DNA of 60,152 nt, from positions 1 through 60,152 of IMG/VR virus record IMGVR_UViG_3300011115_000619, one strand, 5' to 3'. This DNA comes from a virus. Its lineage: Duplodnaviria > Caudoviricetes. Shown in pieces: positions 821 to 17,229 of this stretch. The position numbers and the translations under genes are program-made. Every line of letters begins with the position of its first letter. Position 1 is the stretch's first letter. Below the pieces are notes generated by a model that ran no database searches, was not told where the DNA came from, and was given only the letters and a program-made list of their open reading frames with translations.

Positions 821-1153
821 TCAAAGGATACCGGCAGGATCGTAGTCAGGACCTTTCCAGTAGCTACATGCACCCGTCAGAATGACGACAGGTCCATGCA
901 GGAATGTCGGTGTGTTTTCGATGTCCAGCTTAATGAGTTCTGAAGCTAAGGCATTGAGAACATGGACGTTTTTGTCTGGGTTCATGACCCTGAACACTGT
1001 GGCCCGCTCCTTCATGAAGTGAGACCACAGGAACGTTGCCATCATCTTGTGGCCAGCCAATTCGTCAATCTTCCACCTCGGCGGTTCGAGATCGGATATC
1101 TCCATCTCAATACGCCCGTCCTCTCTGAGGATGATGATCTTCCCGTCAGCCAT
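821..1153 (-). CDS. Hypothetical protein, DUF3846-like C-terminus
   Basis: N-x-x-A-S...L-H-G-P-V-V-I-L motif; overlaps the end of the upstream ORF. Confidence 0.55.
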   Translation of the reverse strand: MADGKIIILREDGRIEMEISDLEPPRWKIDELAGHKMMATFLWSHFMKERATVFRVMNPDKNVHVLNALASELIKLDIENTPTFLHGPVVILTGACSYWKGPDYDPAGIL

Positions 1154-1571: not shown

Positions 1572-1690
1572 GGTCTCTCCTTTCAGGTTGAAAGATGTGG
1601 TGATTTCAGGCGCATTTGCATCCAAGAAATCTATCGCGTTGGTATTGTAAGTGCTTGGCTTGGTGTTTGCTAGTGTCTAGGATGTGCGTC

Positions 1691-3406: not shown

Positions 3407-3435
3407 GATGCAATTGCACGCGAAATGGGGAACAC

Positions 3436-3921
3436 ATGCCAAAGCCGACACTCCGTCTTGAGTACCATGCGCCCAATGCGCGCAAGAAGATCCGCGTCCG
3501 CAACGTCACAAGCACAGAGCTTGATCGTCTGCGTCATCTCGAACTGATAACCCGTGAGCAGCACGACGCTGGGGAAGCTGCTCTCAGGGATCTGTGGCAG
3601 GCCAAGATGCTAGGTCCTGCCGCAGCGAACTTCGCTGGTGGGGGTGGTGGGGGAGGTGACCCTGCCCCCATGTCCTCGTCCAGATCTCGTGGCATCAAAG
3701 CCGTCAATGAATGGATCAGGCATCTTGATGCTGACGTGGGGATGGGTCCTCGCCGTGTCCTGATGACGCTGCTCTGCGACGACAGGTTCATCGACACCCC
3801 GTCCACCATCGTGGTCATCAGGCAGGCCCTGACAGCCACGATGAAGGTGCATGAGGCGAGGAGGATCAATCGACCCACCCTCGCCTCGATGTTCGCTCAG
3901 GCCTTCTCTGGGAACGACTGA
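3436..3921 (+). CDS. Hypothetical protein, DUF6456-like (possible regulator)
   Basis: LDRL...ITREQHDAGE..RD motif; preceded by palindrome 3407 and a GGGGA RBS. Confidence 0.5.
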   Translation: MPKPTLRLEYHAPNARKKIRVRNVTSTELDRLRHLELITREQHDAGEAALRDLWQAKMLGPAAANFAGGGGGGGDPAPMSSSRSRGIKAVNEWIRHLDADVGMGPRRVLMTLLCDDRFIDTPSTIVVIRQALTATMKVHEARRINRPTLASMFAQAFSGND

Positions 3922-4055
3922 GCGTAGGCCTGCGAGATGATGCGAGCAGCCATGTTGGAAAGGCTGCGCTCCTCCTTCTCGGCCATCTGCTTCAACATAT
4001 CCATGGCCTCGTCCTTGAGGTTGAGGCTCAGGCGCTTGCGGTTATCTTCAGCCAT
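3897..4055 (-). CDS. Ribbon-helix-helix (Arc/CopG-like) DNA-binding protein, 52 aa
   Basis: RKRLSLNLKDEAMDMLKQMAEKEERSLSNMAARII matches the RHH pattern; TAATG coupling to the upstream gene. Confidence 0.8.
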   Translation of the reverse strand: MAEDNRKRLSLNLKDEAMDMLKQMAEKEERSLSNMAARIISQAYAQSFPEKA

Positions 4056-4756
4056 TAGTCTTCTCCTTCGTTGTCGCCTTCCATGGCACTGAACACGGCC
4101 TTGGAGGCGATCCTGTTGATGGCACCAACACACCGCTGCACTGAGCCAGCGGTTCTGTAGATGCCGTTGCACACGCCCACATAGACGGGTGATGAATAGA
4201 GGTGCTTGAGGTCAAAGGCCTCGACGTACCAGACTTCGCCGCCATCGAATGGCCTGCCCATCAAGCTGCCCCGCAGAAAGACGTAGTTACCAACTGCAGG
4301 CGATCCGATCTTCTTGAGGAACCGCAGGTATCCGGGGGACACAGTGAAGTAGGCGGTGGTGCCGTTCATGCCCGTGAACACGGTCATATTCCCAGACACC
4401 ACATTTGTCTGGAGGTTTGACCTTGGTTTCAGGTGCAAATGCACCTTCAATAAGTGGGCGCTCTCGTCCCTCTTCAGATCCATGAAGGGTATGTGGGTGT
4501 ACTTCTTCCACAGTGTCTGCCTGAAGTTCTTGAGATCAACAGACTGCCTGCGGATGGAGTAGCTGAGGCTTTGGACGGCAGCCCCGTTCATTGTGTCACG
4601 GCCAATGGCGTTCTGGATGTCGTACTCACTCAGACGATTACTCTTCATCGTTTGATACAGTGCTGCCCTGCGTTCTGCGGGCACTGCCTTGATGGCCGCT
4701 GCTACGCCAATCTTGGCTGCATCAGTGGCGAGGCGGTCATACTTGTTTGGTCTCAT
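4055..4756 (-). CDS. Hypothetical protein
   Basis: Long ORF with GGAGAG RBS, in operon. Confidence 0.7.
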   Translation of the reverse strand: MRPNKYDRLATDAAKIGVAAAIKAVPAERRAALYQTMKSNRLSEYDIQNAIGRDTMNGAAVQSLSYSIRRQSVDLKNFRQTLWKKYTHIPFMDLKRDESAHLLKVHLHLKPRSNLQTNVVSGNMTVFTGMNGTTAYFTVSPGYLRFLKKIGSPAVGNYVFLRGSLMGRPFDGGEVWYVEAFDLKHLYSSPVYVGVCNGIYRTAGSVQRCVGAINRIASKAVFSAMEGDNEGED

Positions 4757-4892
4757 GTTGCTCTCCTGCTCGTGCTGCCTTTGCAGCAACCTCTAGGTAC
4801 CGTTTCTGTGTCTTGGGGGATGCGTTGATCCACCCCCCACGCCACGGGTTGATGTCCTCATAGATGGCCTTCGCCATGGCTTCGAGGTTCAT
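4737..4892 (-). CDS. Small hypothetical protein (51 aa, MNLEAMAKAIYEDINPW...)
   Basis: ATGA overlap with the stop of 4889-6070; fills the gap in the operon; below the ORF-track cut-off. Confidence 0.55.
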   Translation of the reverse strand: MNLEAMAKAIYEDINPWRGGWINASPKTQKRYLEVAAKAARAGEQHETKQV

Positions 4893-6070
4893 ACCTTGAC
4901 CTCCACCTCGTCACCGAACGGCGCAGACACGCTGGTGGTCTTGGCCCAGATCACAGGGTAGGACGGTGCCTCTGCTGGGAAGGTGCCGTACATGTCGGTC
5001 AGGTAGATCAGGGCCTGCGGCTCGATGCCCTGCTCCTTGATCCAGTCGAAGACGGGGCGGAAGTCGGTGCCACCACCGCCAACCGGCTCAGGGATCAGTT
5101 CCTCGCCACGCTCAAAGGTCTGGACCTTGTGGACCTTGGAGTCGCACCACACGAGGTGGATGCGCTCAGGGTCAGCGTCCTCGTAGATGGCCTTGACCTC
5201 TGCGAAGAAGGCATCGAGCAGCGCACCTTGGATGGAGCCAGAGGTATCGATACCCACCACGATCTCACCCACACCCTCACGCAGGTGGCTGGGCAGGTAC
5301 ATGCCGCTGGACAGGTAGCGACGATTGCCACGCGCCCATGTGTAGTCGGCAGGGATGGTGGATGAGAACATCCGGCGAAGCTGGTCACGCCAGTCCACGC
5401 TGGGCTTCATCGCCTCAGAGATCAGACGCTTGAGGACAGCGGGCAGCTTGCCCTGCATCTCGGCAGCCTGCGCAGCCTGAGCAACCCGCGTCATGACCTC
5501 GGACTGCTCGACCTCGATCTCTGATTGGGACATGGGCTGGCCGTCAGCACGCACCTTGTCTCGCACGCCACCCATATCCCATGCGTCACCGTCAGGGATA
5601 TGCTTGGTGCCCTTGGGTGCATTTGCACCTGAACCACCATCGTCGTTGGCCTTGGCCTCCTCCTCCAGCAGCTTGTAGATCTGCTCGGCAGACATGTTCC
5701 TGAAGTCTTCAGAGATCAGCGCACCGGCAGGCAGCTTCATGCCAGACGCCACCACGATGGGGTTAATGGCGTAGTCGCAGGCTACGTTCCACAGGCGAGG
5801 GTTGCGCTTGCCACGGCGCAAGTGATGGGCGTTGGTGACGTGCAGAACCTCATGGCACAGCACACCAAGGATCTCGTCCGCGCTGATCTCCTCGACAAAC
5901 TTGGGCGAGTACATGATGCACTTGCCGTCAGTCGCCATGGTGGAGATCTCAGGACGCTCGATCATCTGCATGGGGATGACAAGCGCGCCATAGAAAGGCT
6001 GGTTGAAGAGCAGCTTGATGCGGCCCTTGGTGATCATCAGTTCAGGGGTAAGCTTCTTGGTCGGGGTCAT
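4889..6070 (-). CDS. Metallopeptidase-like + VWA domain protein (DUF2201 type)
   Basis: TMATDG, HEVLH (HExxH), WNVACDYAIN, VWA MIDAS DTSGS, GGGGTDF and YLTD.YG. Confidence 0.88.
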   Translation of the reverse strand: MTPTKKLTPELMITKGRIKLLFNQPFYGALVIPMQMIERPEISTMATDGKCIMYSPKFVEEISADEILGVLCHEVLHVTNAHHLRRGKRNPRLWNVACDYAINPIVVASGMKLPAGALISEDFRNMSAEQIYKLLEEEAKANDDGGSGANAPKGTKHIPDGDAWDMGGVRDKVRADGQPMSQSEIEVEQSEVMTRVAQAAQAAEMQGKLPAVLKRLISEAMKPSVDWRDQLRRMFSSTIPADYTWARGNRRYLSSGMYLPSHLREGVGEIVVGIDTSGSIQGALLDAFFAEVKAIYEDADPERIHLVWCDSKVHKVQTFERGEELIPEPVGGGGTDFRPVFDWIKEQGIEPQALIYLTDMYGTFPAEAPSYPVIWAKTTSVSAPFGDEVEVKV

Positions 6071-6249
6071 TGGTCTGTCTCCAGTTTGGAAATGATGTGC
6101 TCAAGATGTTCAGCCGCCACGAGGTCGGCGTTCTTCTTGCCGGGCTTGGGGATGAACCCGCTGCCCGTGCCGCGCCGCCTACGGTAGGCAGCACGTCCAC
6201 GCAGCATGTTCATCACGGTCTCAAGCTCTGCTTCTGTAAGGTTCTTCAT
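6067..6249 (-). CDS. Small hypothetical protein
   Basis: ATGA-coupled on both sides. Confidence 0.6.
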   Translation of the reverse strand: MKNLTEAELETVMNMLRGRAAYRRRRGTGSGFIPKPGKKNADLVAAEHLEHIISKLETDQ

Positions 6250-6551
6250 GTCAGTCTGCCCTTGAGGTAGATCTCCTCGTCACCCTCGCTGGCGCGGCGC
6301 ATGATGGCCTCGGCGTCAGGCATCGTGGAGTTGAGGTCGGGTTGGGTGAGGTCGGTCATGTTGGCCACGCGGTTGACGCCCTTGTAGAGCAGCAGTTCCC
6401 AGATCTTCTTCTTGTCCTGCATGAGGACCAGATACAGGTTCAGCTTGCCCTTCATGCCCGCGAGGGGGACGCCGTTAATCTTGAACTTCGCGCCCTCCAT
6501 CTTGGCGAAGACGATGGCACCAACGATCTCGTTCTTCTCTTCTTCAGTCAT
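6246..6551 (-). CDS. Hypothetical protein
   Basis: Palindrome 6568 plus GGAGAG RBS precede ATG 6551. Confidence 0.65.
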   Translation of the reverse strand: MTEEEKNEIVGAIVFAKMEGAKFKINGVPLAGMKGKLNLYLVLMQDKKKIWELLLYKGVNRVANMTDLTQPDLNSTMPDAEAIMRRASEGDEEIYLKGRLT

Positions 6552-6581
6552 GTGTCTCTCCATTTGGGGTGCAATTGCATC

Positions 6582-6609
6582 CAAAAGGGGGTGGCTTGTA
6601 ACCACCCCC
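6582..6609 (-). terminator. Rho-independent terminator candidate after AAA ATPase
   Basis: GGGGGTGG/CCACCCCC stem followed by TTTT on the minus strand; abuts palindrome 6568. Confidence 0.55.
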
Positions 6610-6617
6610 ATTGCAGA

Positions 6618-7646
6618 TCAGACCATCAGGGTGAGGTGTTCGCGTGCCCACTTGGCGACAGCCGGAACCTTCTTCAGTTCAGCGTCACGGGCGACAGCCT
6701 CCTTGATGCAGACGGTCGCATGTTCAGCGGGCAGCCGGTCAAGGTAGTCAACGATGGCACCCGCCGTCTTCTTGTCCATGATGCGGGACAGCTTGGACAT
6801 CAGCATGTACATGATGCCGGGACCGTTCTCGCCAGACGGGACCGGCGCATTGCCGGGGCTGGACAAAATCAGGTTGATGTCCGGCACCTGCATGGCGAGG
6901 CGCAGATGCCCCTCAAACACGGTCGCGGCACCCTCACCAACGGCACCAGCGATCAGGCGCTGCCGGATGAACGGCTCCACGGCCATGCCGATGATGCTGT
7001 TCACGAAGTTCCACGCACGGGGCGAGGGGTTGGACCGCTGCGAGGCATCGAACTTGTGCAGCAGGTCATCGTGCAGGCGGAAGAAAGACAGCACCTCCGG
7101 GCAGATGTCATTGGCTGCACCCCATGCGGTGAAGTCATCCACATCGCTGTCCACCTCAAGGAACACGAAGCGGTTGGCGAGATGGCGGGGCATCTCATGG
7201 GTAGCCGCACGGCTGGAGCGAGGGTTGCCAGCCGCCACGATGATGGCACCGTCAGGCAGACGGTACTCACCGATGGAGCGATCCAGCACAAGCTGGCTCA
7301 CGGTGTTCTGCACCAGAGGAACGGCCTGCGGCAGTTCATCGAGGAACAGGATGCCCGCCCAAGCAGGGTCGGACGGCAGTTCATCCGGGGCGTTCCAGAC
7401 GGTGCGCCCGGCGACCACAGAGGGGATGCCGCGCAGGTCCACAGGGTCCATCTGCACAAGGCGCAGATCGATCACCTCCAGACCGTGGCGGGCAGCGGCC
7501 TGCTTCACGAGCGAGGACTTGCCCCCACCCGGAGGGCCTTCAAGGAACAGGCAGATGCGGCTCTCGTCGCGGCCACCAGCGGCAGCCACGGCATTGTTCT
7601 GAACGATGGCCGCATCGAGGGCAGCGGCAACATGGGTCGGCTTCAT
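6618..7646 (-). CDS. MoxR/CobS-like AAA+ ATPase
   Basis: Walker A GPPGGGKS, DLRGIP, Walker B ILFLDE, AAGNP and LANRF. Confidence 0.9.
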   Translation of the reverse strand: MKPTHVAAALDAAIVQNNAVAAAGGRDESRICLFLEGPPGGGKSSLVKQAAARHGLEVIDLRLVQMDPVDLRGIPSVVAGRTVWNAPDELPSDPAWAGILFLDELPQAVPLVQNTVSQLVLDRSIGEYRLPDGAIIVAAGNPRSSRAATHEMPRHLANRFVFLEVDSDVDDFTAWGAANDICPEVLSFFRLHDDLLHKFDASQRSNPSPRAWNFVNSIIGMAVEPFIRQRLIAGAVGEGAATVFEGHLRLAMQVPDINLILSSPGNAPVPSGENGPGIMYMLMSKLSRIMDKKTAGAIVDYLDRLPAEHATVCIKEAVARDAELKKVPAVAKWAREHLTLMV

Positions 7647-7689
7647 GGTCTTGGTCTCCTGTCTCGCACCACATTGGTGCTTGGTTGCG

Positions 7690-7718
7690 ACTATAGGGCA
7701 CACACTGCACCCAGTCAA
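7690..7718 (-). promoter_or_regulatory. Sigma70-type promoter for the AAA-VWA operon
   Basis: TTGACT-N17-TATAGT on the minus strand; the spacer contains a GGTGCA half-site; IHF-consensus AATCAACGCTTTA at 7739-7751. Confidence 0.7.
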
Positions 7719-7871
7719 GTACTATTTTATCCCTTTAGAATCAACGCTTTAGGTCAGCGATTGCTTGGAGAAAGCCAAGCGTCAGCAGGATGATGCTGAT
7801 TGTCATCAGGTCCACGGTATGTAACCATTCAGGTTGTCCTCATTTGGGGTGCAATTGCACCTAGGTTGATG

Positions 7872-8099
7872 TCACTTCACGTTGCGCCAAACGATGGTGC
7901 CCTGCTTGTCGGTGAGCAGGTGGTAGTTATCGGTGGCGATGGCGACCCTCACGTTGTAGCCAAGCGACTTGATGATCCCCATGGCACGGGGTGTGAGGGT
8001 CTTGGCGTTCAGCAAGTCCGCGAACTTGCGTGATGTGTCGCAGGCAGGGTAGGTCAGGTCATTGCCGTACACGTTCTTCACAGTGACTAGAAAGTCCAT
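7872..8099 (-). CDS. Hypothetical phage protein (KNVYG..YP.C motif)
   Basis: AAGGAG RBS and palindrome 8119 upstream. Confidence 0.75.
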   Translation of the reverse strand: MDFLVTVKNVYGNDLTYPACDTSRKFADLLNAKTLTPRAMGIIKSLGYNVRVAIATDNYHLLTDKQGTIVWRNVK

Positions 8100-8151
8100 C
8101 GTCTCTCTCCTTGTTTGGGGTGCATTTGCATCTGAAAGGTATCGGTGGGGA

Positions 8152-8760
8152 TCAACCCCACCTCAACCCGTAATGGTCCGCGCAGATGGGACCGTAGCCC
8201 ACATGCACAGACCGCTCGTCCTTCAGGCCACGGCTACAGAAGCAGCAGTTACCAGTCCGCTTGCCATAGGCAGAGGCGGTGCCTGTCGGGTCCTTCGCCA
8301 TGGTGACAAGCGCCATCGCGACCTCGGTGATGGTGTCGATGCTCACCTTACGGGAAGGCTCGAACACCCCGTCACGGGTGATGCGTCCGTACCACGTCCG
8401 ATTCTCAAAGCTACCAAGGCTGGTGACATTGATTGCCCCCGGCACCTTCGATCGCTCGCCTGCCACAGAGATGCGCACGTCCGCACCGTCAGGCATGGCG
8501 ACCACAAAGGCAGGGAACTTCAGGCGCGACCCAGCCTTCTCCAGCAACGCCACGATGCCCGACACGTCACCCACGTTCACGGGTGCGGGCGGCGGGTCAT
8601 CCATCCCGGTCGCACGCTTGTGCAGCACGCCCAGCCAGTGAAGTTGCTTGTGGGACAGGCCACGATTGTGGAACTGATTGAGCAGGGACAGGGCGAACGT
8701 CCGATCCTTGTCGTTCAGGTTGTCGATGTTCTCCAGCAGGGCCTTCGCTTCGATATCCAT
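8152..8760 (-). CDS. DUF6011-like Zn-binding domain protein
   Basis: C-terminal GNCCFCSRGLKDERSVHVGYGPICA; AGGAG RBS and palindrome 8780 upstream. Confidence 0.75.
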   Translation of the reverse strand: MDIEAKALLENIDNLNDKDRTFALSLLNQFHNRGLSHKQLHWLGVLHKRATGMDDPPPAPVNVGDVSGIVALLEKAGSRLKFPAFVVAMPDGADVRISVAGERSKVPGAINVTSLGSFENRTWYGRITRDGVFEPSRKVSIDTITEVAMALVTMAKDPTGTASAYGKRTGNCCFCSRGLKDERSVHVGYGPICADHYGLRWG

Positions 8761-8854
8761 GTTCTCACTCCTGATTTGGGGTGCAATTGCACCTGAAAGG
8801 TTAGTGTCCCACCGTCCGTGGGTATGGGTTTGGGACAGTGGGACAGTTGGGCAG

Positions 8855-9628
8855 TTAGAAGCGCACCACGAAACCATTCGTGCTACGCTTGGCCTTGGCA
8901 CCCTTGGGCGACAGCCCCACGACCACACCCTTGGGGTCAAGGTGGCGCAGGTCATGCTTGTCGCCGTTGATCACGGTCGCGCCCCAGTAGGTGGCGGGGA
9001 ACGCCATGCCGAACACCACGGCCACGTTATGCCCAGCGGCAAGCGCAGCCTTGCATTCCTCGTGGTTCTCGCCAGAGAACGAGAATGTCTGGTGTACGTT
9101 GGGTGCAACTGCACCCAAACGCTTGAAGTCCTTGGTGTACTCCACGAATTGAACGTCCGGGAACAGAGCGGGCAGGGTGATCATCGTGCCTTCTGGTACC
9201 CCAGTCATGGCTGCAGTGCGGGCATCCACCTTGAACTTGATGCGCGACCAGTTCAGGTCAGTCGACCCATTCAGGCGGGCGCAGAACTTCTTCAGCAGAC
9301 GCCGGGCTTTGCGCGATGCCCGAACAATGAACCGGGCAATGTGATTCATGTATTCGTTGCGATGCTCCATGAACATGCGAGCCTTGGCAATTCTGGCCGC
9401 ACGAACGTGACCAATCCCTGCCTCAAGGTCAACGACCATTGCAACATGCCCAGCGTACCAACCAAGGCACAGTTCAACGCACTGGGGCGAGGCATTGCCG
9501 CACAGATCACCCACGCCCCCGCTCGTGAAGGGTGCCATGTAGTGGATCGCGTTCAGGTAACCATAACCCTCGGCCTTGACGGCCTTGGCGCTGTCCATGG
9601 ACATGACACGGTCGTAATTGATTGCCAT
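8855..9628 (-). CDS. GP88-family / radical-SAM-like Fe-S protein
   Basis: C-x5-C-x3-C (CGNASPQCVELC), RLNGSTD, FVEYTK, TFSFSG and GD.HDLRHLDP motifs. Confidence 0.65.
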   Translation of the reverse strand: MAINYDRVMSMDSAKAVKAEGYGYLNAIHYMAPFTSGGVGDLCGNASPQCVELCLGWYAGHVAMVVDLEAGIGHVRAARIAKARMFMEHRNEYMNHIARFIVRASRKARRLLKKFCARLNGSTDLNWSRIKFKVDARTAAMTGVPEGTMITLPALFPDVQFVEYTKDFKRLGAVAPNVHQTFSFSGENHEECKAALAAGHNVAVVFGMAFPATYWGATVINGDKHDLRHLDPKGVVVGLSPKGAKAKRSTNGFVVRF

Positions 9629-9672
9629 TGCATGGCCTCCATTTGGGGTGCATTTGCACCTGAAATCCTGAC

Positions 9673-9727
9673 GGCCTCGTCAGTGGGGATCACATCCCGC
9701 AGACCGGGGTTTCCCCCGGTTTCGGCC
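9673..9727 (-). ncRNA. Type II hammerhead ribozyme HH1
   Basis: GGCC-GAAA-CCGGGG[GAAA]CCCCG-GUC^-UGCGGGAU[GUG]AUCCCCA-CUGACGA-GGCC; full catalytic core and three stems; predicted cut between 9702 and 9701. Confidence 0.92.
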
Positions 9728-9731
9728 TTGG

Positions 9732-10010
9732 TCAGTCCCAGAGTCGCTCCAGATTGTCGGCGACCCAGCGCAGCGATTCCTTGGCTTGCGCGAAATCGTC
9801 CGCAAGAGCATCGCCATTTCCATCGTTGTTCCCGTGAAGGGTCAGGCAGGCACCATGCAGCATCAGCAGCCCCGTCCAATCGTCAGGGTCCACGTCCGCA
9901 GGGTGACCCTTGCCGAACATTGCCATGTACTGCAAACGGTCCCCGATAAAAGTGCAAAGGTGCGACCGCAGGTCATGCCAGCCATCGGGAATCTCAATCA
10001 CGCGCTTCAT
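9732..10010 (-). CDS. Hypothetical protein
   Basis: Palindrome 10029 plus GGGAGA RBS; stop lies 4 nt before HH1. Confidence 0.65.
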   Translation of the reverse strand: MKRVIEIPDGWHDLRSHLCTFIGDRLQYMAMFGKGHPADVDPDDWTGLLMLHGACLTLHGNNDGNGDALADDFAQAKESLRWVADNLERLWD

Positions 10011-10047
10011 TCTCGTTCTCCCATTTGAGATGCAATTGCACCCGAAA

Positions 10048-10242
10048 TCAGCGTGCCGCCCACCAAGGGGCATTGTGTTCGCGCACTGCGGCCTGCATTT
10101 CCAGTTCGCGCATGACCTGCGCGCTGGTGCGGTTCCGTCGCGCCACGGTATCGGCATAGAAAAAGTGATAGGTGAGTATCCCGGTGACGACCGGCATCAG
10201 GATAATCAGACCAAACATCTGCAGGCTTGTGGTCACGTCCAT
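10048..10242 (-). CDS. Small predicted membrane protein
   Basis: Hydrophobic N-terminal segment; palindrome 10261 plus GGAG RBS. Confidence 0.65.
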   Translation of the reverse strand: MDVTTSLQMFGLIILMPVVTGILTYHFFYADTVARRNRTSAQVMRELEMQAAVREHNAPWWAAR

Positions 10243-10286
10243 TTTTATTCTCCAGTTTGAGGTGCATTTGCACCTGAAATCCTGAC

Positions 10287-10341
10287 GGCCTCGTCAGTGC
10301 CCGCATTACGGGTCAGACACGGGTGACCCCGTGTTTCGGCC
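10287..10341 (-). ncRNA. Type II hammerhead ribozyme HH2
   Basis: GGCC-GAAA-CACGGG[GUCA]CCCGU-GUC^-UGACCCGU[AAU]GCGGGCA-CUGACGA-GGCC; predicted cut between 10316 and 10315. Confidence 0.92.
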
Positions 10342-10602
10342 TTAGAAAGGAATCGGCGACCATACCTCGGCATTGCTCGGTTCCATGGCGATGATATCCC
10401 TGTGGGGCAGGGGCTTGCCGTTGGCGAGCCTGACACTGATGCACAGGTCATCCCAGTCCGCATACTCAGCGGCACGCTCCGCAATTTTGCTGGCGCAAGC
10501 GAGTGTCTCGTAGGTGTTGTGGTTCCAGCGGCGCGTCACGGTCCCGGTGATTTCATCGCGGCTACCGTGAATTGTCAGGGTGACATAGATTGCGAATTGC
10601 AT
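10342..10602 (-). CDS. Hypothetical protein
   Basis: Palindrome 10620 plus GGAG RBS; TAA abuts HH2. Confidence 0.7.
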   Translation of the reverse strand: MQFAIYVTLTIHGSRDEITGTVTRRWNHNTYETLACASKIAERAAEYADWDDLCISVRLANGKPLPHRDIIAMEPSNAEVWSPIPF

Positions 10603-10641
10603 TGTCGTTCTCCGTTTGGGGTGCAATTGCACCCGAAAGTT

Positions 10642-10803
10642 TCAGATTGCGCGAGCGGCCTTGCCCACAATCAGGGTGGCGGTCGCGGTCGCGTCCACGG
10701 TCCCATCCAGCATGGCACAGCACGCCCCCTTCATGTTGCGGGCATAGACCAGCGCAACGCGAACGGCACCCTTGTCACGAAGGGTCACAAGATAGGCGTT
10801 CAT
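10642..10803 (-). CDS. Small hypothetical protein (53 aa, MNAYLVTLRDKG...)
   Basis: ATGA overlap with the upstream 30-aa ORF; ends just before palindrome 10620. Confidence 0.5.
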   Translation of the reverse strand: MNAYLVTLRDKGAVRVALVYARNMKGACCAMLDGTVDATATATLIVGKAARAI

Positions 10804-10892
10804 GCTGCACCATGAAGCAAAGCAATGGCGATCACGAACATCACCAAGCGACCGGGCATGGTGCCCAGCAGAAACCCTGCCACATTTTCCAT
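10800..10892 (-). CDS. Tiny hydrophobic peptide (30 aa, MENVAGFLLG...)
   Basis: Palindrome 10912 plus AAGGA RBS. Confidence 0.4.
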   Translation of the reverse strand: MENVAGFLLGTMPGRLVMFVIAIALLHGAA

Positions 10893-10945
10893 TGTGTCAT
10901 TCCTTGTTTGGGGTGCAATTGCACCTGAAAGCTAAACCATCTGAC

Positions 10946-10999
10946 GGCCTCGTCAGCACCCGCATCACGGGTGGACACGGGTTGCCCCGTGTTTCGGCC
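10946..10999 (-). ncRNA. Type II hammerhead ribozyme HH3
   Basis: GGCC-GAAA-CACGGG[GCAA]CCCGU-GUC^-CACCCGU[GAU]GCGGGUG-CUGACGA-GGCC; predicted cut between 10974 and 10973. Confidence 0.93.
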
Positions 11000-11001
11000 T
11001 G

Positions 11002-11337
11002 TTACCATGGTTCCTTGGCATGGTCCGCTTCGTCCCACCAAGGATCATTCTCGCAAGCGGGCACGGGGTCAGTCTCCGCATGGTACTGTTCCTGTAGAAC
11101 GAACAGCCTGTGACGGGTGGCCTCCGCGATATTGTCCCACCGCACGATTTCGGAGTTCAGGATTTCGGCCCGGAAATCATCAGGCTCCACCCCCTCAAAC
11201 TTTGCTTCTGCCATAAGCACCCGCAATTCGTTGCGGCACTTGCGGGCGGCACCCTCCGCACTTTCAGCGAGGGTGCGCATCTGATTGAAATCCTCATTCT
11301 CTGCGATGTACTGAAAGAAGGGGTCAAAGGCAGGCAT
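11002..11337 (-). CDS. Hypothetical acidic protein
   Basis: Palindrome 11356 plus GGGAGA RBS; flanked by HH4 and HH3. Confidence 0.7.
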   Translation of the reverse strand: MPAFDPFFQYIAENEDFNQMRTLAESAEGAARKCRNELRVLMAEAKFEGVEPDDFRAEILNSEIVRWDNIAEATRHRLFVLQEQYHAETDPVPACENDPWWDEADHAKEPW

Positions 11338-11387
11338 GTTCAATCTCCCATTTGGGGTGCAATTGCACCTGAAATCTCAAACGATGG

Positions 11388-11448
11388 GGCCATCGTCAGT
11401 ATGGGCATCACCCATAGACGCAGGGGCTTGCGCCCCCGCGTTTCGGCC
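11388..11448 (-). ncRNA. Type II hammerhead ribozyme HH4
   Basis: GGCC-GAAA-CGCGGGGGC[GCAA]GCCCCUGC-GUC^-UAUGGGU[GAU]GCCCAUA-CUGACGA-U-GGCC; one extra U after the core; predicted cut between 11417 and 11416. Confidence 0.88.
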
Positions 11449-11453
11449 TTGTG

Positions 11454-11996
11454 TTATTCCTCGCTTGCCAGTTCCACGTCACCATCCTTGGCGGCTGCGG
11501 CTGCGAGTTCCTTAAGCACCCGCACCCGTTCCGCGACCGTTGCGTAATCGTCGTCCGACAGTTCCGCGATGCGCTTGGCGAGTGCCTCAAGGGGGTCAAC
11601 CGGCGCAACATGAAGCGCGCGGATCTTGGTTTCAGTGTCGATATCGTTCTCCGCGAACCAGTCGAGCAATTCGCGCTTGCCATTGCGGGCAATCTCCCGA
11701 ATCTCCGGGCAATTTTTGATCACGCCATTGGCGTTGGCGCAATAACGGGTGGCGCAAGCGTCCGTGATACCGTTGGCGAGCATCAGGTCCTTCAGTTTCA
11801 TCACTTGCCCCTTTTCAAGTCCACCAGACTTGAGGGTGCCGACGACGACGATATCGGCCATGAGACCGGCATACACTTCTACCTTGGCTTCATTGCAGAA
11901 ACCGCGTGCGGCCTTGGCATCCTTGTCGCGTTCCATGACAACGGCATGGCCCATGGCAACGCGGGCGACGATATCGTTCAGGTTGAGCGTGTTCAT
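11454..11996 (-). CDS. Hypothetical protein, first gene of the leftward operon
   Basis: Palindrome 12016 plus GGAG RBS. Confidence 0.75.
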   Translation of the reverse strand: MNTLNLNDIVARVAMGHAVVMERDKDAKAARGFCNEAKVEVYAGLMADIVVVGTLKSGGLEKGQVMKLKDLMLANGITDACATRYCANANGVIKNCPEIREIARNGKRELLDWFAENDIDTETKIRALHVAPVDPLEALAKRIAELSDDDYATVAERVRVLKELAAAAAKDGDVELASEE

Positions 11997-12391
11997 TTTG
12001 GTAGTCTCCATTTGGGGTGCAATTGCACCCATAATCGGGCGAGATTGCCCGGCGCACTAGACCGTGATCCAGTGGGCGGGACACACTCGCTTGTGGGTGG
12101 CACGCAATCGCGCCACCCCCCATATCGTTGAAGCACCCCTTGCTATCGGGGCGCCACACAACGACTAGTTAAACCGATCTTATATTGTTAGGGCATAGCC
12201 GTTCCCATTGCAGGGTGGCTCACATCTCTACCGTTCCATAGGGGCTTCTGCTTGCTCTGCCCGGCGATGTGTTCTCTTGATTGGAACATTCATTGCGACG
12301 AACAGCCTATGGGCAACTTTGATGTGGCCTACCTTTTTCATAAGTCATCGCGGTAGGAGCGACCGCCCCTCACGCGGGGCTAGCTATTCGA

Positions 12392-12403
12392 TTGTCAAAG
12401 AAC
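12392..12403 (-). promoter_or_regulatory. boxA-like antitermination element
   Basis: GTTCTTTGACAA on the minus strand, close to rrn/phage boxA (GCTCTTTAACAA), at the 5' end of the long leader. Confidence 0.55.
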
Positions 12404-12705
12404 GGTCAGGGGCTTGTACCATCCCCCCCGGGGGACTTGCGCTGTTTCCCCCGCCGGGGCCGGTCGGGGTGTCCCCCGCCGGTGAATTGATAACGCCATG
12501 GGACCGGGGCTGGATGCAAGCAAAAAATGCGATTTGGGGTGCATTGCATCGAAAAAAGGGGAGAGTTTGGTAAAAGGTGAATGATTTCAATGGGTTGAGC
12601 GTTTGCCTGTGTCGCGTATATATTATAAAGAGTGGGCGCGGAAATCGGAGCGTATGTTCCGGTTTTGTTCCGCCCGGAATCAGAGCGAAGCGAGAGGAAA
12701 GCCGA

Positions 12706-13203
12706 ATGAGGGGACCGAAACTACCTAGTGGACTAACACCCAAACAGGAAGGCTTTGCCCGTATGGTGGCAAAAGGGTCAAATCTAACAATGGCTTACCG
12801 TGAAGTGTATGACACTGGAACCATGGCAGATAAGACTATCTGGCAAGAGGCATGGACACTTTCAAGAAACCAGAAGGTGGCCGATATGATTGAAAGCCTG
12901 CAAAAGGCTAATGAAAGCATGGAGTTGCATGATTCCGAGAAAGCAAAGGCATGGGCTTTGGAAAGACTAAAGGTAGAGGCAACCAGTGCAGAGACTGACG
13001 GTGCTCGTATTCGTGCCGTGGAATTAGTTATGAAGCACCATGGTTTACTTACTGACAAGTTGGTGACCAAGGATGAAACCGAATTGAATGCTGTAGACTT
13101 GCGAGCAATGCTTGAGTCTAAACTTGCAGATCGGTTGGGATTACTTATTGACCATGAGGATATACTTGAAGACAGCGAGGAGGAGGAGAGCGAGGAAGGC
13201 TAA
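12706..13203 (+). CDS. terS: Terminase small subunit (putative)
   Basis: LTPKQEGFAR...G.NLT.AY...Y N-terminal HTH and a ARIRAVELVMKHHGL segment typical of TerS. Confidence 0.7.
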   Translation: MRGPKLPSGLTPKQEGFARMVAKGSNLTMAYREVYDTGTMADKTIWQEAWTLSRNQKVADMIESLQKANESMELHDSEKAKAWALERLKVEATSAETDGARIRAVELVMKHHGLLTDKLVTKDETELNAVDLRAMLESKLADRLGLLIDHEDILEDSEEEESEEG

Positions 13204-13533
13204 GTCCTTGATATCATTGGGTTTTTTGGGGTGCATTGTACCAGTGGGGGGTTCACCCCACCCTAGGGGCACCCCCCCGCTGGGACTGAAGGTACCCGCG
13301 CTGTGTATGTATAATATTCCACTCACTCCATCCCTACATCTACAAATCGTTGTACCCCCTCCCCCTCCCCTGCCCTTTTACCCCGTGTTTTACCTACCCC
13401 CGGTTGAATTAGCCTCCGTTTCCCCTGAAAATCCTCATTTGCGTGGGTCCCATACCCACCCCCTGAAAATTTTGCGTTGATTTTTCAAATACCCTGTTCT
13501 ATCCCTGTTCACAGTTCATACAGGGAGGCACCA

Positions 13534-13746
13534 ATGAACTGGGAGAAGAGACTGTATGTGGCAGGTGCATTTGCATCTGTAGCCATGGTCGTGTGCTGGT
13601 ATCTGACAGCCCAGCAGGACCGGCGGGACTTCATGATCGAGTGCCAGACGGATGGCATGAAGCACTACTACTGTGTGTCGCTCTGGAATGGTGGCGGCAT
13701 CCCCGTGTTTCGCAGCAGGGACATGATCCCACTGGATGTGAACTGA
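13534..13746 (+). CDS. Small membrane-anchored hypothetical protein
   Basis: GGGAGG RBS; N-terminal hydrophobic helix. Confidence 0.6.
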   Translation: MNWEKRLYVAGAFASVAMVVCWYLTAQQDRRDFMIECQTDGMKHYYCVSLWNGGGIPVFRSRDMIPLDVN

Positions 13747-13910
13747 TGGCCAATCGCTTCACGACGTTGACCAAGGAACTGGCGGAAGCTGAGTTTGAGC
13801 TGGCAGAGGCCACAAGGGCGGTGAATGACGCTCAGAGGCATCTCAGACGCATGACTGGTTGGCACGCAGAGATTCTGCGGCTTTTGGAGGAGGAGGACAA
13901 ACATGGATGA
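13746..13910 (+). CDS. Small coiled-coil hypothetical protein
   Basis: TGATG coupling; MANRFTTLTKELAEAE... Confidence 0.55.
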   Translation: MANRFTTLTKELAEAEFELAEATRAVNDAQRHLRRMTGWHAEILRLLEEEDKHG

Positions 13911-14187
13911 CAACTTTGTTTGGTGCGTTTTGATTGGCGCACTGGCTTATGTCTTTAGGGACACGCTTCCCAGCTACAGAGAACTGACCGATTGGTATGA
14001 TGCCAAGCGGTTGGACAGCATCAACGATGCTGTTGATGACAACGAGCAGACCATGTTGGCTATCGCCAATCGGGTTGATGAAATGCAGTCGGATGTGGCA
14101 GGCCACCTCACCCGCATTGATGACCTTGAGGCAAGGATTGCGGTGGTGGAGGGGAAGGCCAAGGGGTTTGTGGGGGATGCGTCATGA
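13903..14187 (+). CDS. Membrane-anchored coiled-coil hypothetical protein
   Basis: GGAGG RBS; overlapping operon arrangement. Confidence 0.6.
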   Translation: MDDNFVWCVLIGALAYVFRDTLPSYRELTDWYDAKRLDSINDAVDDNEQTMLAIANRVDEMQSDVAGHLTRIDDLEARIAVVEGKAKGFVGDAS

Positions 14188-14474
14188 CCAACGACAAGTG
14201 CAAGCTTGAGTTCAACTGCCCGGTCTGCAACCCGCCCAAGCAGGATAGCAAGGACATCGTCAAGGCCATGCGTAATAGGCTTGATGATGGACGGGTTGGG
14301 CTTTGGCCCACTGACCAATCTCTGATGTCCAAAGCCGTCACGGAGATTGAAAAGCTCAGGGCATATGTCAGGACCCTGACGGGTCAGCTTTCTCATGTTG
14401 GCGGTATCAGCACCAGCACAGTGGAGAATGTGAAGAGAAATCTGAAGATTGATGGAGGGTGGGACCTTGAGTGA
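14184..14474 (+). CDS. Hypothetical protein
   Basis: ATGA coupling; CxxC and EIEKLR segment. Confidence 0.55.
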   Translation: MTNDKCKLEFNCPVCNPPKQDSKDIVKAMRNRLDDGRVGLWPTDQSLMSKAVTEIEKLRAYVRTLTGQLSHVGGISTSTVENVKRNLKIDGGWDLE

Positions 14475-14709
14475 ACATGGCCATTGCCCCGCCTGCAAGG
14501 CAGATATGACCGGCGGATTGATCTGGCAGACCATGCTGGAGCAGTCCGAGGGCAACGAAGAGGAGGCTGACCGCAAGGCCGATATGTATGGGGCGACCCG
14601 TACATCAGGACACTGGGGCAGGAAGATTGGCCTCTATGACATGGCGGCTGACAGGACCGCAAAGTACATGTGCCCTGACTGCAACCATGTCTGGGCGCGG
14701 GAGGACTGA
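14449..14709 (+). CDS. Zn-ribbon hypothetical protein (start may be ~14467)
   Basis: CPAC...CPDC pairs. Confidence 0.6.
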   Translation: MMEGGTLSEHGHCPACKADMTGGLIWQTMLEQSEGNEEEADRKADMYGATRTSGHWGRKIGLYDMAADRTAKYMCPDCNHVWARED

Positions 14710-15039
14710 ATGACTGACATTGTGAAGGAGATACGCGAAGTTGCTCTGATCGCCAAGATGGCGAGAGTCATGGACCTGATGTATCGCGCCGCTGAAGAGA
14801 TCGAGCGGCTGCGTTCTGTGATCGACGCAACGGCCAACCACTGGCTGGCATTGCAGCACGAGCGCCCGGTCAAGTGGGAAGGTGCAATTGACGGAGCGAT
14901 GGAAGCGGCTTGCGCCAAGATCGTGGAGCTTGATGCCTTCCTCGTTATAGCCAACGAGCAGCAAGTCGCCGTGGAGAACGAGAACGGGAAGCTGCGTGAA
15001 GAGGTGCGGCGTCTGAGGGTGGAGGCTGGATATGACTGA
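14710..15039 (+). CDS. Hypothetical protein (MTDIVK...EIERLR type)
   Basis: GGAGG RBS; shares N- and C-terminal segments with 15181-15339. Confidence 0.6.
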   Translation: MTDIVKEIREVALIAKMARVMDLMYRAAEEIERLRSVIDATANHWLALQHERPVKWEGAIDGAMEAACAKIVELDAFLVIANEQQVAVENENGKLREEVRRLRVEAGYD

Positions 15040-15184
15040 CCTGCACGTCACACCAATCAACGATCTGCGCGATCACATCTCGTCTGCGGATTGCTGGTGC
15101 AAACCAGAATGGGACGAGGGTGTCTTTGTCCATAACTCTATGGACCGCAGGGAGGAGTATGAAGAAGGGAGGGAGCCGCAATGA
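15032..15184 (+). CDS. Small His/Cys protein (50 aa; HVTPINDLRDH...CWCKP...HN)
   Basis: GGAGG RBS; below the ORF-track cut-off. Confidence 0.6.
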   Translation: MTDLHVTPINDLRDHISSADCWCKPEWDEGVFVHNSMDRREEYEEGREPQ

Positions 15185-15339
15185 CCGACATCGTCAAACG
15201 GATTGACGCGCACTTGGAGAGCGATAACGCAGAGCAGAGATGGCTGGCCTCAGACGGATTGCTGGAAGAGGCGCAGGCTGAAATAGAACGACTGCGCGAG
15301 GAAGTGCGGCGTCTGAGGGTGGAGGCTGGATATGACTAA
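15181..15339 (+). CDS. Small hypothetical protein (52 aa), partial paralog of 14710-15039
   Basis: Starts MTDIVK and ends LREEVRRLRVEAGYD like 14710-15039. Confidence 0.6.
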   Translation: MTDIVKRIDAHLESDNAEQRWLASDGLLEEAQAEIERLREEVRRLRVEAGYD

Positions 15340-15568
15340 CATCAAAGACATGCTTGCTGCTGCGACGATCCCTCATGACAGCCAGTTCCTTGCCTCCATG
15401 CTCAAAGATGCGGCCAAAGAATTGGTGGCTTTGAGAAGGCGGATAAACGACATGAGCAGGGATATTGAATCGCTGCAGGAGGAGAGCAGAACCCGGAAGC
15501 AGATGATCGATGTTTTGAACAGCATCATAAACGAGTTTGAAAATCAGAGGGGGAAAGAGAATGACTGA
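15332..15568 (+). CDS. Coiled-coil hypothetical protein
   Basis: RBS lies within the 34-bp repeat. Confidence 0.55.
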   Translation: MTNIKDMLAAATIPHDSQFLASMLKDAAKELVALRRRINDMSRDIESLQEESRTRKQMIDVLNSIINEFENQRGKEND

Positions 15569-15986
15569 CTGGGACACAAGGATGCTGGCGCTGGCAGAAC
15601 ATGTCGCCCAGTGGAGCAAAGACCCGTCTACCAAGGTGGGCTGTGTTATTGCCGATGAGGACCACCGGGTTCTGAGCATTGGCTTCAACGGGTTCCCCAA
15701 GGGCATTCCTGATGCAGGTTTGGATGACCGGGAGTTCAAGTATGCCCGTGTGGTCCATGCTGAACTGAATGCCTTGATGTTTGCCCGTGGCTCTGTGGCA
15801 GGTGCCACGATGTATGTCTGGCCCATGCCTCCTTGCTCACGCTGTGCCGGGCCGATCATTCAGGCAGGCATCCTGCGCGTGGTGTCGCCTCCGGCTGGTG
15901 AGCGTTGGAGAGAAGCCTGTGCAGTAGGTGAGCAGATGTTCAGGCAGGCGTGGATTGATGTCGCGGAGGTGCCCCATGAAGGTTGA
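15561..15986 (+). CDS. dCMP deaminase
   Basis: SKDPSTKVG, GFNG, HAELNA and PCSRC. Confidence 0.92.
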   Translation: MTDWDTRMLALAEHVAQWSKDPSTKVGCVIADEDHRVLSIGFNGFPKGIPDAGLDDREFKYARVVHAELNALMFARGSVAGATMYVWPMPPCSRCAGPIIQAGILRVVSPPAGERWREACAVGEQMFRQAWIDVAEVPHEG

Positions 15987-16809
15987 ACTGGTAGACAAGA
16001 TGGGAACTGACCTGATGACCGTGAATACGGCACGGGTGAGCTTCGCCAAGCACAAGACCGAAATGGATGCGAGCGACGAGAAGCTGATTGCATACCTTGC
16101 CAAGCACAACCATTGGCTCCCGTTTGCTCATGCGACCATCCAGTTTCGGGTCGCCGCCCCGATCTTTGTCGCGAGGCAGCTTGCCAAGCATCAGGTGGGT
16201 GCTGTCTGGTCTGAGGAGTCCCGCCGGTACATTGACGATGACCCTGAGATCTATGTTCCGGGCAAATGGCGCACGAGGCCTGCAAACGTCAAGCAAGGCT
16301 CTGGAGGGGATCTTCACCCCGGCGACGGCTATCTGGCAGGATCAACCTACGAAACCGCCATGAGGGACGCTGCGACGGCTTACAGGACGCTGCTCAAGCG
16401 TGGCGTGGCTCCTGAAATGGCACGGATGACCCTGCCGCAGTCTGCCGTCACTGAGTGGATCTGGACCGGGAGCCTTTTGTTTTTCTCCCGCGTTTGTCAG
16501 CTGCGCCTCGATGGCCATGCCCAGTCGGAAACCCGCACTGTGGCAGAGAAGATCCATGACATCTGCGCCATCCTGTTCCCGATTTCGTGGCGGGAGTTGA
16601 TGGCAAGGCGTGATGCGCCTGACGCTGAAGAGATGGCCCACCTGCGGGCTGAGGTTGAGAACTTGAAGAAGGCCCTGAACAAGGCCAACAGTGAGAACAG
16701 CAAGATCCTTCAGCGTATGTATGACCAAAAACAGGGCAAAACCGTGCCTACGGATGGGCTGACCAACCCGCTTTCAGGTGCATTGCACCCCAAAGGATGG
16801 AAGTCATGA
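15976..16809 (+). CDS. thyX: Flavin-dependent thymidylate synthase
   Basis: ARVSF, PIFVARQLAKHQ..WSEESRRY, APEMARMTLP and LRLDGHAQ.E. Confidence 0.93.
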   Translation: MKVELVDKMGTDLMTVNTARVSFAKHKTEMDASDEKLIAYLAKHNHWLPFAHATIQFRVAAPIFVARQLAKHQVGAVWSEESRRYIDDDPEIYVPGKWRTRPANVKQGSGGDLHPGDGYLAGSTYETAMRDAATAYRTLLKRGVAPEMARMTLPQSAVTEWIWTGSLLFFSRVCQLRLDGHAQSETRTVAEKIHDICAILFPISWRELMARRDAPDAEEMAHLRAEVENLKKALNKANSENSKILQRMYDQKQGKTVPTDGLTNPLSGALHPKGWKS

Positions 16810-17081
16810 CACCCGGTCAGAGGAAAATGATGGATGCGGTCCATGATCATTGGAAAGAGCATGGATACGCACCATCGATGAGGGAGCTTCAGGAGAAGCT
16901 GGGGTACAAATCTGTATCTCAGGCTCACTCTACCCTGAAAGCCCTGATCAATCGCGGTTGGTTGATGTACACACCCAACCAAGCAAGGTCGCTGCGCTTG
17001 TCCACACATGCCATCCGCCTGTTCAACGGCGAGGCACGCAGGAAAGAGAAGTGGCCTCTTGAGATGCTAGGTGAGTGCTGA
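16806..17081 (+). CDS. LexA-like winged-helix DNA-binding domain protein (no protease domain)
   Basis: TPGQ...GYAPSMREL...LG.KS.S..H..L.AL..RGW...PNQARSLRL. Confidence 0.8.
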   Translation: MTPGQRKMMDAVHDHWKEHGYAPSMRELQEKLGYKSVSQAHSTLKALINRGWLMYTPNQARSLRLSTHAIRLFNGEARRKEKWPLEMLGEC

Positions 17082-17200
17082 GTAATTGGTATTTGAAAGT
17101 CTTGACTATGCACGTCAAATACCCCGAACTGTGTACATTGGACGGTAAACGGCTGGTCACCTAACCGTTCATGCAGTTCCTCCCTGTCTCCTGCACGGAA

Positions 17201-17227
17201 GCCCCGCCCCTCAAAGGTGGGGCTTTT
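17201..17227 (+). terminator. Terminator-like hairpin directly before terL
   Basis: GCCCCGCC...GGTGGGGC followed by TTTT. Confidence 0.5.
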
Positions 17228-17229
17228 GC

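Follow-up and report, generated by a model that had tools for sequence, protein, structure and literature searches.

The window analysed here is the whole of the IMG/VR virus record IMGVR_UViG_3300011115_000619 (60,152 bp; estimated completeness 99%; G+C content 57.8%), and its source is an uncultivated freshwater phage of roughly 60 kb. The minus strand carries a leftward gene block, running from about 12,000 to about 1,100, and inside this block lie four short elements, HH1 to HH4, which are almost certainly real type II hammerhead ribozymes. Each of them follows a stop codon and precedes the ribosome site of the next gene, within a run of co-oriented open reading frames (ORFs):

HH1: 11388..11448, minus strand; starts at 11448, 5 nt past the stop codon at 11456-11454; C17 at 11417, predicted cut at 11417/11416
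HH2: 10946..10999, minus strand; 2 nt past the stop codon; C17 at 10974, predicted cut at 10974/10973
HH3: 10287..10341, minus strand; 0 nt past the stop codon; C17 at 10316, predicted cut at 10316/10315
HH4: 9673..9727, minus strand; 4 nt past the stop codon; C17 at 9702, predicted cut at 9702/9701

The first-pass annotation of this DNA had described four intergenic type II elements on the minus strand, and a script parse returned every one of its coordinates, as well as the full core, the compensatory stems I and III, the loops and the gaps of 0–5 nt to the stop codons. The predicted cut sites and the sizes of the units between the cuts (443, 658 and 614 nt) came out identical when recalculated by the same parse.

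Structure of the four hammerheads

On the minus strand all four copies read A-GGCC-GAAA-(hairpin)-GUC-(hairpin)-CUGACGA-GGCC, which is the type II topology: there are three helices, of which stems I and III are capped by loops and stem II is open (4 bp, GGCC/GGCC). The conserved core was tested at C3, U4, G5, A6, N7, G8, A9, G12, A13, A14, A15.1-U16.1 and H17, and 13 of 13 positions are kept in all four copies (CUGACGA, GAAA, and UC with C17). The pairs adjacent to the core are likewise standard throughout (10.1-11.1 G-C; 1.1-2.1 U-A or C-G; 15.1-16.1 A-U), and such pairs were a screening rule of Perreault et al. 2011 (PMC3088659). The loop of stem III is GCAA in HH1 and HH2, GUCA in HH3 and GAAA in HH4, and the strands of this stem are CACGGG/CCCGUG (HH2, HH3), CCGGGG/CCCCGG (HH4) and CGCGGGGGC/GCCCCUGCG (HH1). 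In HH1, stem III has 9 bp in addition to the A15.1-U16.1 pair, and stem I has 6–7 bp. The sequence of stem I is unlike in each of the four copies, and stems I and III vary by compensatory changes. When the RNA is ended at the 3' GGCC, the predicted minimum-energy fold is the active secondary structure in HH1, HH2 and HH3; for HH4 it consists of the same three stems with two more pairs in stem I.

Covariance models

The Rfam search that the first-pass annotation had proposed as a check was favourable in one respect and unfavourable in another: all four copies match RF02276 (Hammerhead_II) end to end, over the full span of the model (HH2 33.6, HH3 26.4, HH4 24.8 and HH1 20.0 bits), and none of them reaches the Rfam gathering score of 37 bits, which is an annotation threshold and not a biological criterion. 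A default Rfam scan of the whole window at the gathering score listed nothing, and a scan at E ≤ 1 listed HH2 and HH3 only, plus two spurious matches. Sub-threshold matches to RF02276 were present in 11 of 14 control genomes; since such matches are common in the controls, the Rfam scores alone prove little. The shortfall of the copies is explained by their longer stem II and short loop I.

A second covariance model (R1) was built from a seed of HH2 and 18 copies of equal length from other viral contigs, chosen for their paired stems, so that the pairing of 99.7% within the seed is by construction. Over the whole window, with filters off, R1 gave 79.0 bits for HH2 (a seed member), 68.3 for HH3, 60.5 for HH4 and 50.1 for HH1. 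The E-values are 1e-18 to 4e-13 for the three copies outside the seed and 1e-13 to 1e-22 for all four. The fifth-best match across the 60 kb scores 11.8 bits, and the window contains exactly four copies. A fifth exact occurrence of GGCCGAAAC, at 22614-22622, was considered and is not a hammerhead.

A subfamily with GGCC stem II in other viral contigs

The four copies belong to a subfamily, defined by its 4-bp GGCC/GGCC stem II, that is common in uncultivated phages. A search pattern in which nothing but the core and both GGCC strands was fixed occurs in at least 119 stretches of IMG/VR viral contigs. Among the matches listed, 123 of the 143 candidates have both hairpins at 4 bp or more; of 2,840 letter-shuffled stems, 103 reached 4 bp for stem III and 111 for stem I. 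Run across the window and 99 viral loci, R1 detected 138 copies, of which 133 are distinct. Their R1-fitted alignment has 99.1% of its cells paired, against 69.7% after shuffling, and both partners vary in 15 of its 17 pairs; these figures are weakened by the fitting of the alignment to the model and by the finding of the loci with a core-fixing pattern. The core columns are invariant or nearly so, and N7 is C in 67 copies, U in 58, A in four and G in four. An additional nucleotide at the position where HH1 has an extra U is seen in 5 of the 133 copies (four U, one A). According to a review, in the hammerhead of chrysanthemum chlorotic mottle viroid an extra A is tolerated there, and its change to U made the trans-cleaving form 3-4-fold faster (PMC3705267), so the extra U of HH1 is not evidence of decay. 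Complementarity between loop I and the tail, taken over 115 copies, is mostly 2-4 nt long and shows no excess.

At the Rfam threshold, 5 of the 34 R1 matches in 16 loci (L005-L020) are recovered, which means that the GGCC-stem-II design is under-annotated, and phage hammerheads of this design are probably under-counted by routine annotation. The 97 loci with R1 matches comprise 78 with one copy, ten with two, seven with three and one each with four and eleven, counts that are minima as the loci were clipped. The 19 loci with 2–11 copies are arrays, each confined to a single strand, so the four copies of the window are ordinary for the family. The largest array (L011; G001:C1:2564-7560) belongs to a viral record of 67.6 kb that is 95% complete, and its eleven subfamily copies share one strand of a 5-kb stretch; they are spaced 237–911 nt apart and lie mostly 0–3 nt past a stop codon and 3–26 nt before the next start.

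Position relative to stop codons

The close approach to the preceding stop codon is also seen outside the window. Counting only upstream frames with 40 or more open codons (median 97), 111 of 134 distinct copies begin between -1 and +5 nt from the stop codon, compared with 324 of 6,700 positions drawn at random from these loci. In 42 of these 111 copies the G of a UAG stop doubles as the first G of GGCC. The distance from a copy to the following start codon is far more variable than that to the stop codon. Since the copies start at the stop codon, a terminating ribosome, given the usual ribosome footprint, would cover the 5' strand of stem II.

The gene block and its surroundings

The leftward block starts with many small ORFs, and these are followed by genes for a GP88-like protein, a DUF6011 protein, an AAA ATPase and a DUF2201 metallopeptidase/VWA protein. 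The genes next to the hammerheads are:

Gene A: 11454..11996, minus strand; 180 aa, no family match; its stop codon is 5 nt ahead of HH1
Gene B: 11002..11337, minus strand; 111 aa, no family match; between HH1 and HH2; missing from related contigs
Gene C: 10800-10892, minus strand; 30 aa, no family match; in the HH2-HH3 interval (10342..10892)
Gene D: 10642-10803, minus strand; 53 aa, no family match; in the HH2-HH3 interval
Gene E: 10342-10602, minus strand; 86 aa, no family match; in the HH2-HH3 interval
Gene F: 10048-10242, minus strand; 64 aa, no family match; in the HH3-HH4 interval (9732..10242)
Gene G: 9732-10010, minus strand; 92 aa, no family match; in the HH3-HH4 interval
GP88-like gene: 8855..9628, minus strand; PF17338, phrog_1617; first gene past HH4

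Comparison of genes A to G with PHROGs and Pfam gave nothing reliable; their codon-position GC pattern is like that of the identified genes of the phage. A blastn search of 9000-13000 against a phage collection returned no match, and no relatives of gene A were found in viral contigs. The virion genes of the window include:

Large terminase: 17230-18738
Portal: 18748-21249
Major head protein: 23840-24754

The plus strand encodes further virion proteins and an ORF of 2,710 aa (43185-51317), which lies amid the virion genes and has no PHROG match at E ≤ 0.001. A gap of 540 bp (12035-12576) parts the leftward block from a divergent plus-strand gene; it contains structured stretches rich in G+C and, at about 12530-12550, a degenerate copy of the 24-nt repeat described below. 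The plus-strand gene beyond it (12577-13203) has weak small-terminase/HTH similarity and is a candidate regulator.

From 9600 to 12000, one weak site is the only terminator-like sequence on the minus strand. In a scan of 1-18000 for sigma-70 promoters and terminators, sites were rarer than in shuffled sequence, and the scan did not delimit a transcription unit; none of the sequencing runs listed as carrying this DNA was an RNA run. The name "early operon", which the first-pass annotation gave to the region, is a reasonable guess from its layout.

Palindromic repeats

A palindromic repeat of 24 nt, TTTCAGGTGCAATTGCACCCCAAA, is located 7–15 nt past the 3' GGCC of each hammerhead and is followed by a Shine-Dalgarno sequence and ATG. 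Copies are also found in gaps that have no hammerhead:

11351..11374, minus strand: after HH1, ahead of the Shine-Dalgarno sequence and start codon (ATG) of gene B
10907..10930, minus strand: between HH2 and gene C
10256..10279, minus strand: between HH3 and gene F
9642..9665, minus strand: between HH4 and the GP88-like gene
10615..10638, minus strand: ahead of gene E, in a gap without hammerhead
10024..10047, minus strand: ahead of gene G, in a gap without hammerhead
12011..12034, minus strand: first of the block, ahead of gene A, without hammerhead
8775-8798 (and others): ahead of a gene without hammerhead

In the leftward block the 14-nt palindrome GGTGCANNTGCACC is the core of this repeat, just before the ribosome site of most genes, and in the window it has 30 sites at one mismatch or fewer, against 0.43 expected (for example 7848-7861, 12016-12029, 31049-31062, 44256-44269 and 49206-49219). 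Several copies lie inside late ORFs, where they seem to fall in a single frame (Gly-Ala-x-Ala-Pro). The sites are reminiscent of the stoperators and start-associated sequences of mycobacteriophages (PMC9283540, PMC3203893). In half-site variants the RNA pairing is lost in two of three cases. It seems likelier that the repeat works at the DNA level, for example as a set of sites for a dimeric regulator, than as an RNA hairpin.

The closest relative by its GP88-like protein (L124; 61% identity) has no hammerhead. Between positions 3342 and 9115 (L124:3342-9115) it has at least eight copies of another palindrome, of 16 nt, GAACGCATATGCGTTC, in the same place, before GGGAGAC and start codons. As this relative has a repeat and no hammerhead, the repeat system is older than the ribozymes and separable from them. 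The palindrome appears to co-vary with phage lineage.

Predicted pairing of the tail with the core

With the tail downstream of the 3' GGCC included, the minimum-energy fold of every window copy consists of stem III, stem I and a third hairpin (H3) in series, in which the tail pairs with core nucleotides:

H3 of HH1: 11380..11397, minus strand; G5-A9, the extra U and G10.1 with tail CAUCGUU, 7 bp; in the minimum-energy fold
H3 of HH2: 10941..10956, minus strand; CUGACG with CGUCAG, 6 bp, loop AGGC; in the minimum-energy fold
H3 of HH3: 10282..10297, minus strand; sequence identical to that of HH2; in the minimum-energy fold
H3 of HH4: 9668..9683, minus strand; sequence identical to that of HH2; in the minimum-energy fold

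The H3 of HH2 occupies the core and half of stem II, and HH1 retains the hairpin through another tail and another register (GACGAUG with CAUCGUU).

Other contigs supply 115 distinct well-formed copies. In 38 of these the first 14 nt of the tail include NUCAG, and the N of this motif pairs with N7 in all but one (24 C:G and 13 U:A; the remaining copy has C/U). Tails complementary to CUGAYG are present in 37 of the 115, against a mean of 1.1 and a maximum of 6 in 1,000 shuffles; relatedness among the copies inflates these counts. Switches between C:G and U:A are found between copies with stems or flanks in common (L007, L065 and L101 vs L013, L089 and L033; L087 and L094 vs L032 and L120; L050 vs L038; L043, L045 and L113 vs L121). 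The contig of a close relative has CUGAUGA-GGCC-AUCAG where the window has CUGACGA-GGCC-GUCAG. H3 is missing in about two thirds of the subfamily copies, and when pooled over the 133 copies its pairing is barely higher than after shuffling (62.5% vs 61.1%). We read H3 as a conserved alternative fold in part of the subfamily, and it may serve as a post-cleavage lock or as an off-state.

Probable processing of the block transcript

We consider it likely that the four type II hammerheads cut the RNA of the leftward block into hairpin-ended units, by the mechanism proposed here. That they self-cleave is highly probable, because 14 of 18 consensus hammerheads were active in the tests of Perreault et al. 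(PMC3088659). Cutting the block transcript into hairpin-ended units is their most likely job, one that we favour moderately.

According to this mechanism, the leftward block would be transcribed as a single RNA, in which stems III and I fold while they emerge. The emerging 3' GGCC would close stem II and, judging by the membership of the family, the RNA would cut itself after C17. A 3' tail of 26–37 nt would stay on the upstream mRNA, closing with the stem III hairpin, which is rich in G+C, and a 2',3'-cyclic phosphate. The downstream mRNA would have a leader of 73–81 nt that opens at the stem I hairpin, its first nucleotide bearing a 5'-OH. After a few more nucleotides the tail past the 3' GGCC would pair with CUGACG as H3 and dissolve the short stem II, so that the products part and can no longer religate. 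The predicted outcome is a set of 443-, 658- and 614-nt mRNAs, of the length of a gene or a short block, with hairpin-protected ends and with a stability and translation that are independent of their neighbours.

Several points weigh against this account, beside the low Rfam scores and the sub-threshold matches in the control genomes. For this phage we infer the transcription, its direction and the cuts alike. Two irregularities that the first-pass annotation does not mention are present: HH1 has an additional U between A9 and G10.1, the stem I of HH3 has a bulged A at its third position, and that of HH4 has a bulged or mismatched C at its third position. A pseudoknot of at least four pairs between loop I and the sequence after stem II is found in the majority of type II members, and this accelerating element is not clearly present in the window copies (loop I and tail are complementary over at most 5 nt in HH1, 4 in HH2, 3 in HH3 and 5 in HH4, partly from stem residues). 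With the tail included, the nearest-neighbour model places the H3 fold 1.5–2.5 kcal/mol below the active fold in all four copies, so cleavage might be partial or conditional; such energy models omit the tertiary contacts that stabilise active hammerheads. Finally, 4 of the 18 consensus hammerheads mentioned above were inactive (PMC3088659).

Possible gene cassettes in relatives

A tentative reading, less probable than processing, extends this mechanism and does not exclude it: the hammerheads may chiefly be the borders of exchangeable cassettes, each composed of a 24-nt repeat, a ribosome site, a small gene and a hammerhead. The conserved halves of the ribozymes and the repeats would be recombination points, and the ribozyme would insulate a newly acquired gene. 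This reading draws on contigs of relatives from four freshwater or riverine DNA runs (X2-X5) of three studies, all of them metagenomic and of at least 80% likeness to the window. Compared with 9000-12500 of the window, whole units differ in these relatives, and the joints are at the 24-nt repeats or inside hammerheads. In a single contig of 793 nt, the shorter side of which has 162 letters, 444 nt are skipped (10906 to 11351) and the 24 letters common to both sides are the two repeats. In a 9,455-nt contig 487 nt are skipped (10970 to 11458), and the 35 other letters found there contain a stop codon together with a new hammerhead 5' half. By these two skips gene B and one hammerhead are lost in two different ways. 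A contig of 151 nt runs from an HH4-like 5' half to a new stem I and core and on to the repeat ahead of gene C. A skip of 628 nt, present in two runs of one study and with a shorter side of 30 letters, joins halves of HH3 and HH2 into a hybrid and removes genes C to E. No contig of X2-X5 was found over gene B (11002-11337; 10989-11339). The contigs were presumably assembled with words of 31 letters, 31 being the value stated for the run index; the stretches shared at the joints are 9–24 nt long and thus shorter than the assembly word, which makes false joins unlikely.

The patchy distribution of hammerheads among relatives also fits exchange of cassettes: subfamily hammerheads are found in none of 80 viral loci with relatives of the GP88-like protein (33–61% identity), and hammerheads are found in 1 of 16 loci with relatives of the terminase (57–68% identity). 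The genes flanked by the ribozymes belong to no known family. Set against this, the joints come from metagenome contigs at 80% likeness or more, some of them short-sided, the units have no recombinase or mobility gene linked to them, and recombination at repeated sequences of any kind would leave the same pattern, with no need for the ribozyme to play a special part.

The one positive locus among the terminase relatives (L205:64-130, minus strand) has a single type II hammerhead of 43.8 bits with an extra U after A9; its terminase is 68% identical to that of the window, and the hammerhead is about 1.9 kb upstream of the terminase gene, on the opposite strand. The contigs with terminase relatives (L204-L219), several of about 57–63 kb, are binned into metagenome-assembled genomes of many phyla and are presumably mis-binned phage contigs; since the bins span many phyla, they do not assign a host. 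A metagenome scan with the GP88-like protein gave distant relatives only (at most 51% identity).

Less probable readings: conditional cleavage, circular products and decay

It is unlikely, though worth weighing, that H3 holds the ribozymes mostly off and that they are regulated switches, with cuts conditional on the speed of transcription, on ribosome traffic at the stop codon, on Mg2+ or on temperature. For each of the window copies the predicted ground state is H3, which HH1 keeps by its own tail and register. The excess of core-complementary tails (37 of 115 vs 1.1 expected), the covariation with N7, the C:G/U:A switches in at least four groups of similar copies and in the close relative, and the abutment to stop codons (111 of 134 vs 324 of 6,700 random positions) all point the same way. 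On the other side are the neglect of stabilising tertiary contacts by the energy models, the lack of H3 in about two thirds of the subfamily and the pooled pairing close to that of shuffled copies. No natural allosteric hammerhead is known to have been established.

A combination of these elements is conceivable, and we rate it as improbable as the switch: hammerhead, H3 and abutting stop codon would form a one-shot device, and the units of repeat, gene and ribozyme would be self-insulating cassettes that are exchanged at the ribozyme. The ribozyme would fold only before the tail is made, or once the ribosome clears the stop codon, and would cut once. H3 would then lock the downstream RNA and free the upstream mRNA, which would end in a hairpin just outside the terminating ribosome.

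Two further ideas of the first-pass annotation, decay altered through RppH/RNase E and circularisation by RtcB, are speculation. RtcB-type ligases join 5'-OH and 2',3'-cyclic phosphate ends, and internal units would carry both. It is nevertheless most improbable that the ribozyme-flanked units are excised and circularised, by RtcB or by hammerhead ligation, into circular mRNAs: the ends of a unit derive from different ribozymes and have no pairing to bring them together, H3 would disfavour religation, and the main text of Perreault et al. (PMC3088659) reports that spliced or circular products of clustered hammerheads were sought and none detected (data not shown there). That the motifs are decayed or chance look-alikes, inactive and at most stabilising hairpins, which their scores under the gathering threshold and the small irregularities of HH1, HH3 and HH4 might suggest, is just as improbable, given that every core nucleotide is kept in four diverged copies with compensating stems, that the subfamily model gives E-values of 1e-13 to 1e-22, and that the HH1-type extra nucleotide recurs in the subfamily and as U sped the viroid hammerhead 3-4-fold (PMC3705267).

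Relation to known systems

Natural type II hammerheads were discovered by Perreault et al. 2011 (PMC3088659), who described that multiple prophage hammerheads often flank single genes or short gene blocks and proposed that long phage transcripts are processed to operon- or gene-length mRNAs. In that study three tandem arrangements cleaved in vitro within transcripts of about 2 kb, and the Agrobacterium trio cleaved in E. coli. Reviews of 2017 and 2019 take up this proposal; Weinberg et al. 2019 (PMC6765202) write that a part in processing polycistronic RNA has been suggested and that the purpose remains undefined, and reviews still call the role of bacterial and phage hammerheads open (PMC6765202, PMC6155905). 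In Desulfovibrio vulgaris, in vivo cleavage by three type II hammerheads near phage-like genes was demonstrated with cyPhyRNA-seq (PMC8782182). That a polycistronic phage mRNA might process itself, as the first-pass annotation put forward, is therefore not a new idea; it is the standard hypothesis since 2011 applied to a new locus. The pairing of tail and core with covariation at N7, the abutment to stop codons and the cassette joints were not found in print; H3 and the abutment are unstated in the literature searched, including the main text of PMC3088659, whose supplements (figures S1-S7, Dataset S1) may show them.

The window copies share with RF02276 the core, the permuted order, the open stem II, the capped stems I and III and the phage intergenic setting. 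They differ in a stem II of 4 bp, where the Rfam model has two pairs, and in a loop I of 3–5 nt, with no evident loop I-tail pseudoknot and with a tail that pairs with the core. The prophage clusters of Agrobacterium tumefaciens (ardA locus), Azorhizobium caulinodans and Clostridium scindens (PMC3088659) show the same one-strand bracketing of small genes or blocks, and their proposed role is also the processing of a long phage transcript. Here, in contrast, a 1.8-kb stretch of what appears to be a complete phage genome contains four copies of a single type, and a 24-nt repeat specific to this phage accompanies each of them.

In phage T7 the polycistronic early mRNA is cut between genes by host RNase III, at long double-stranded hairpins, which leaves 5'-phosphate and 3'-OH ends. 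Intergenic cuts and structured ends are common to both cases, whereas the RNA of the window would cut itself and have 5'-OH and cyclic-phosphate ends. RiboJ is an engineered type III hammerhead from a satellite RNA, followed by a hairpin, that fixes the 5' end of the downstream gene. It resembles the window units in that a hammerhead and then a hairpin are placed between genetic parts; the window units are natural, of type II and at the 3' end of the preceding gene. In the cassettes with a promoter and stem-loop (PeSL) of T4-type phages, and in morons, repeated intergenic motifs likewise border small variable genes and mark the joints of insertion, deletion and replacement between close relatives (PMC2839356, PMC4122927). 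The PeSL borders consist of promoter and stem-loop, while those of the window consist of a ribozyme and a palindromic repeat ahead of the start codon.

The added regularities do not change the category of the locus: ribozyme-punctuated phage operons have been known since 2011, and the locus adds a good example to them, not a system of another kind. It is a compact natural case, with four diverged copies and defined cut sites and products in an almost complete phage genome. The covariation of tail and core, the start at the stop codon and the cassette joints provide hypotheses, testable in vitro, on why phages place ribozymes between genes.

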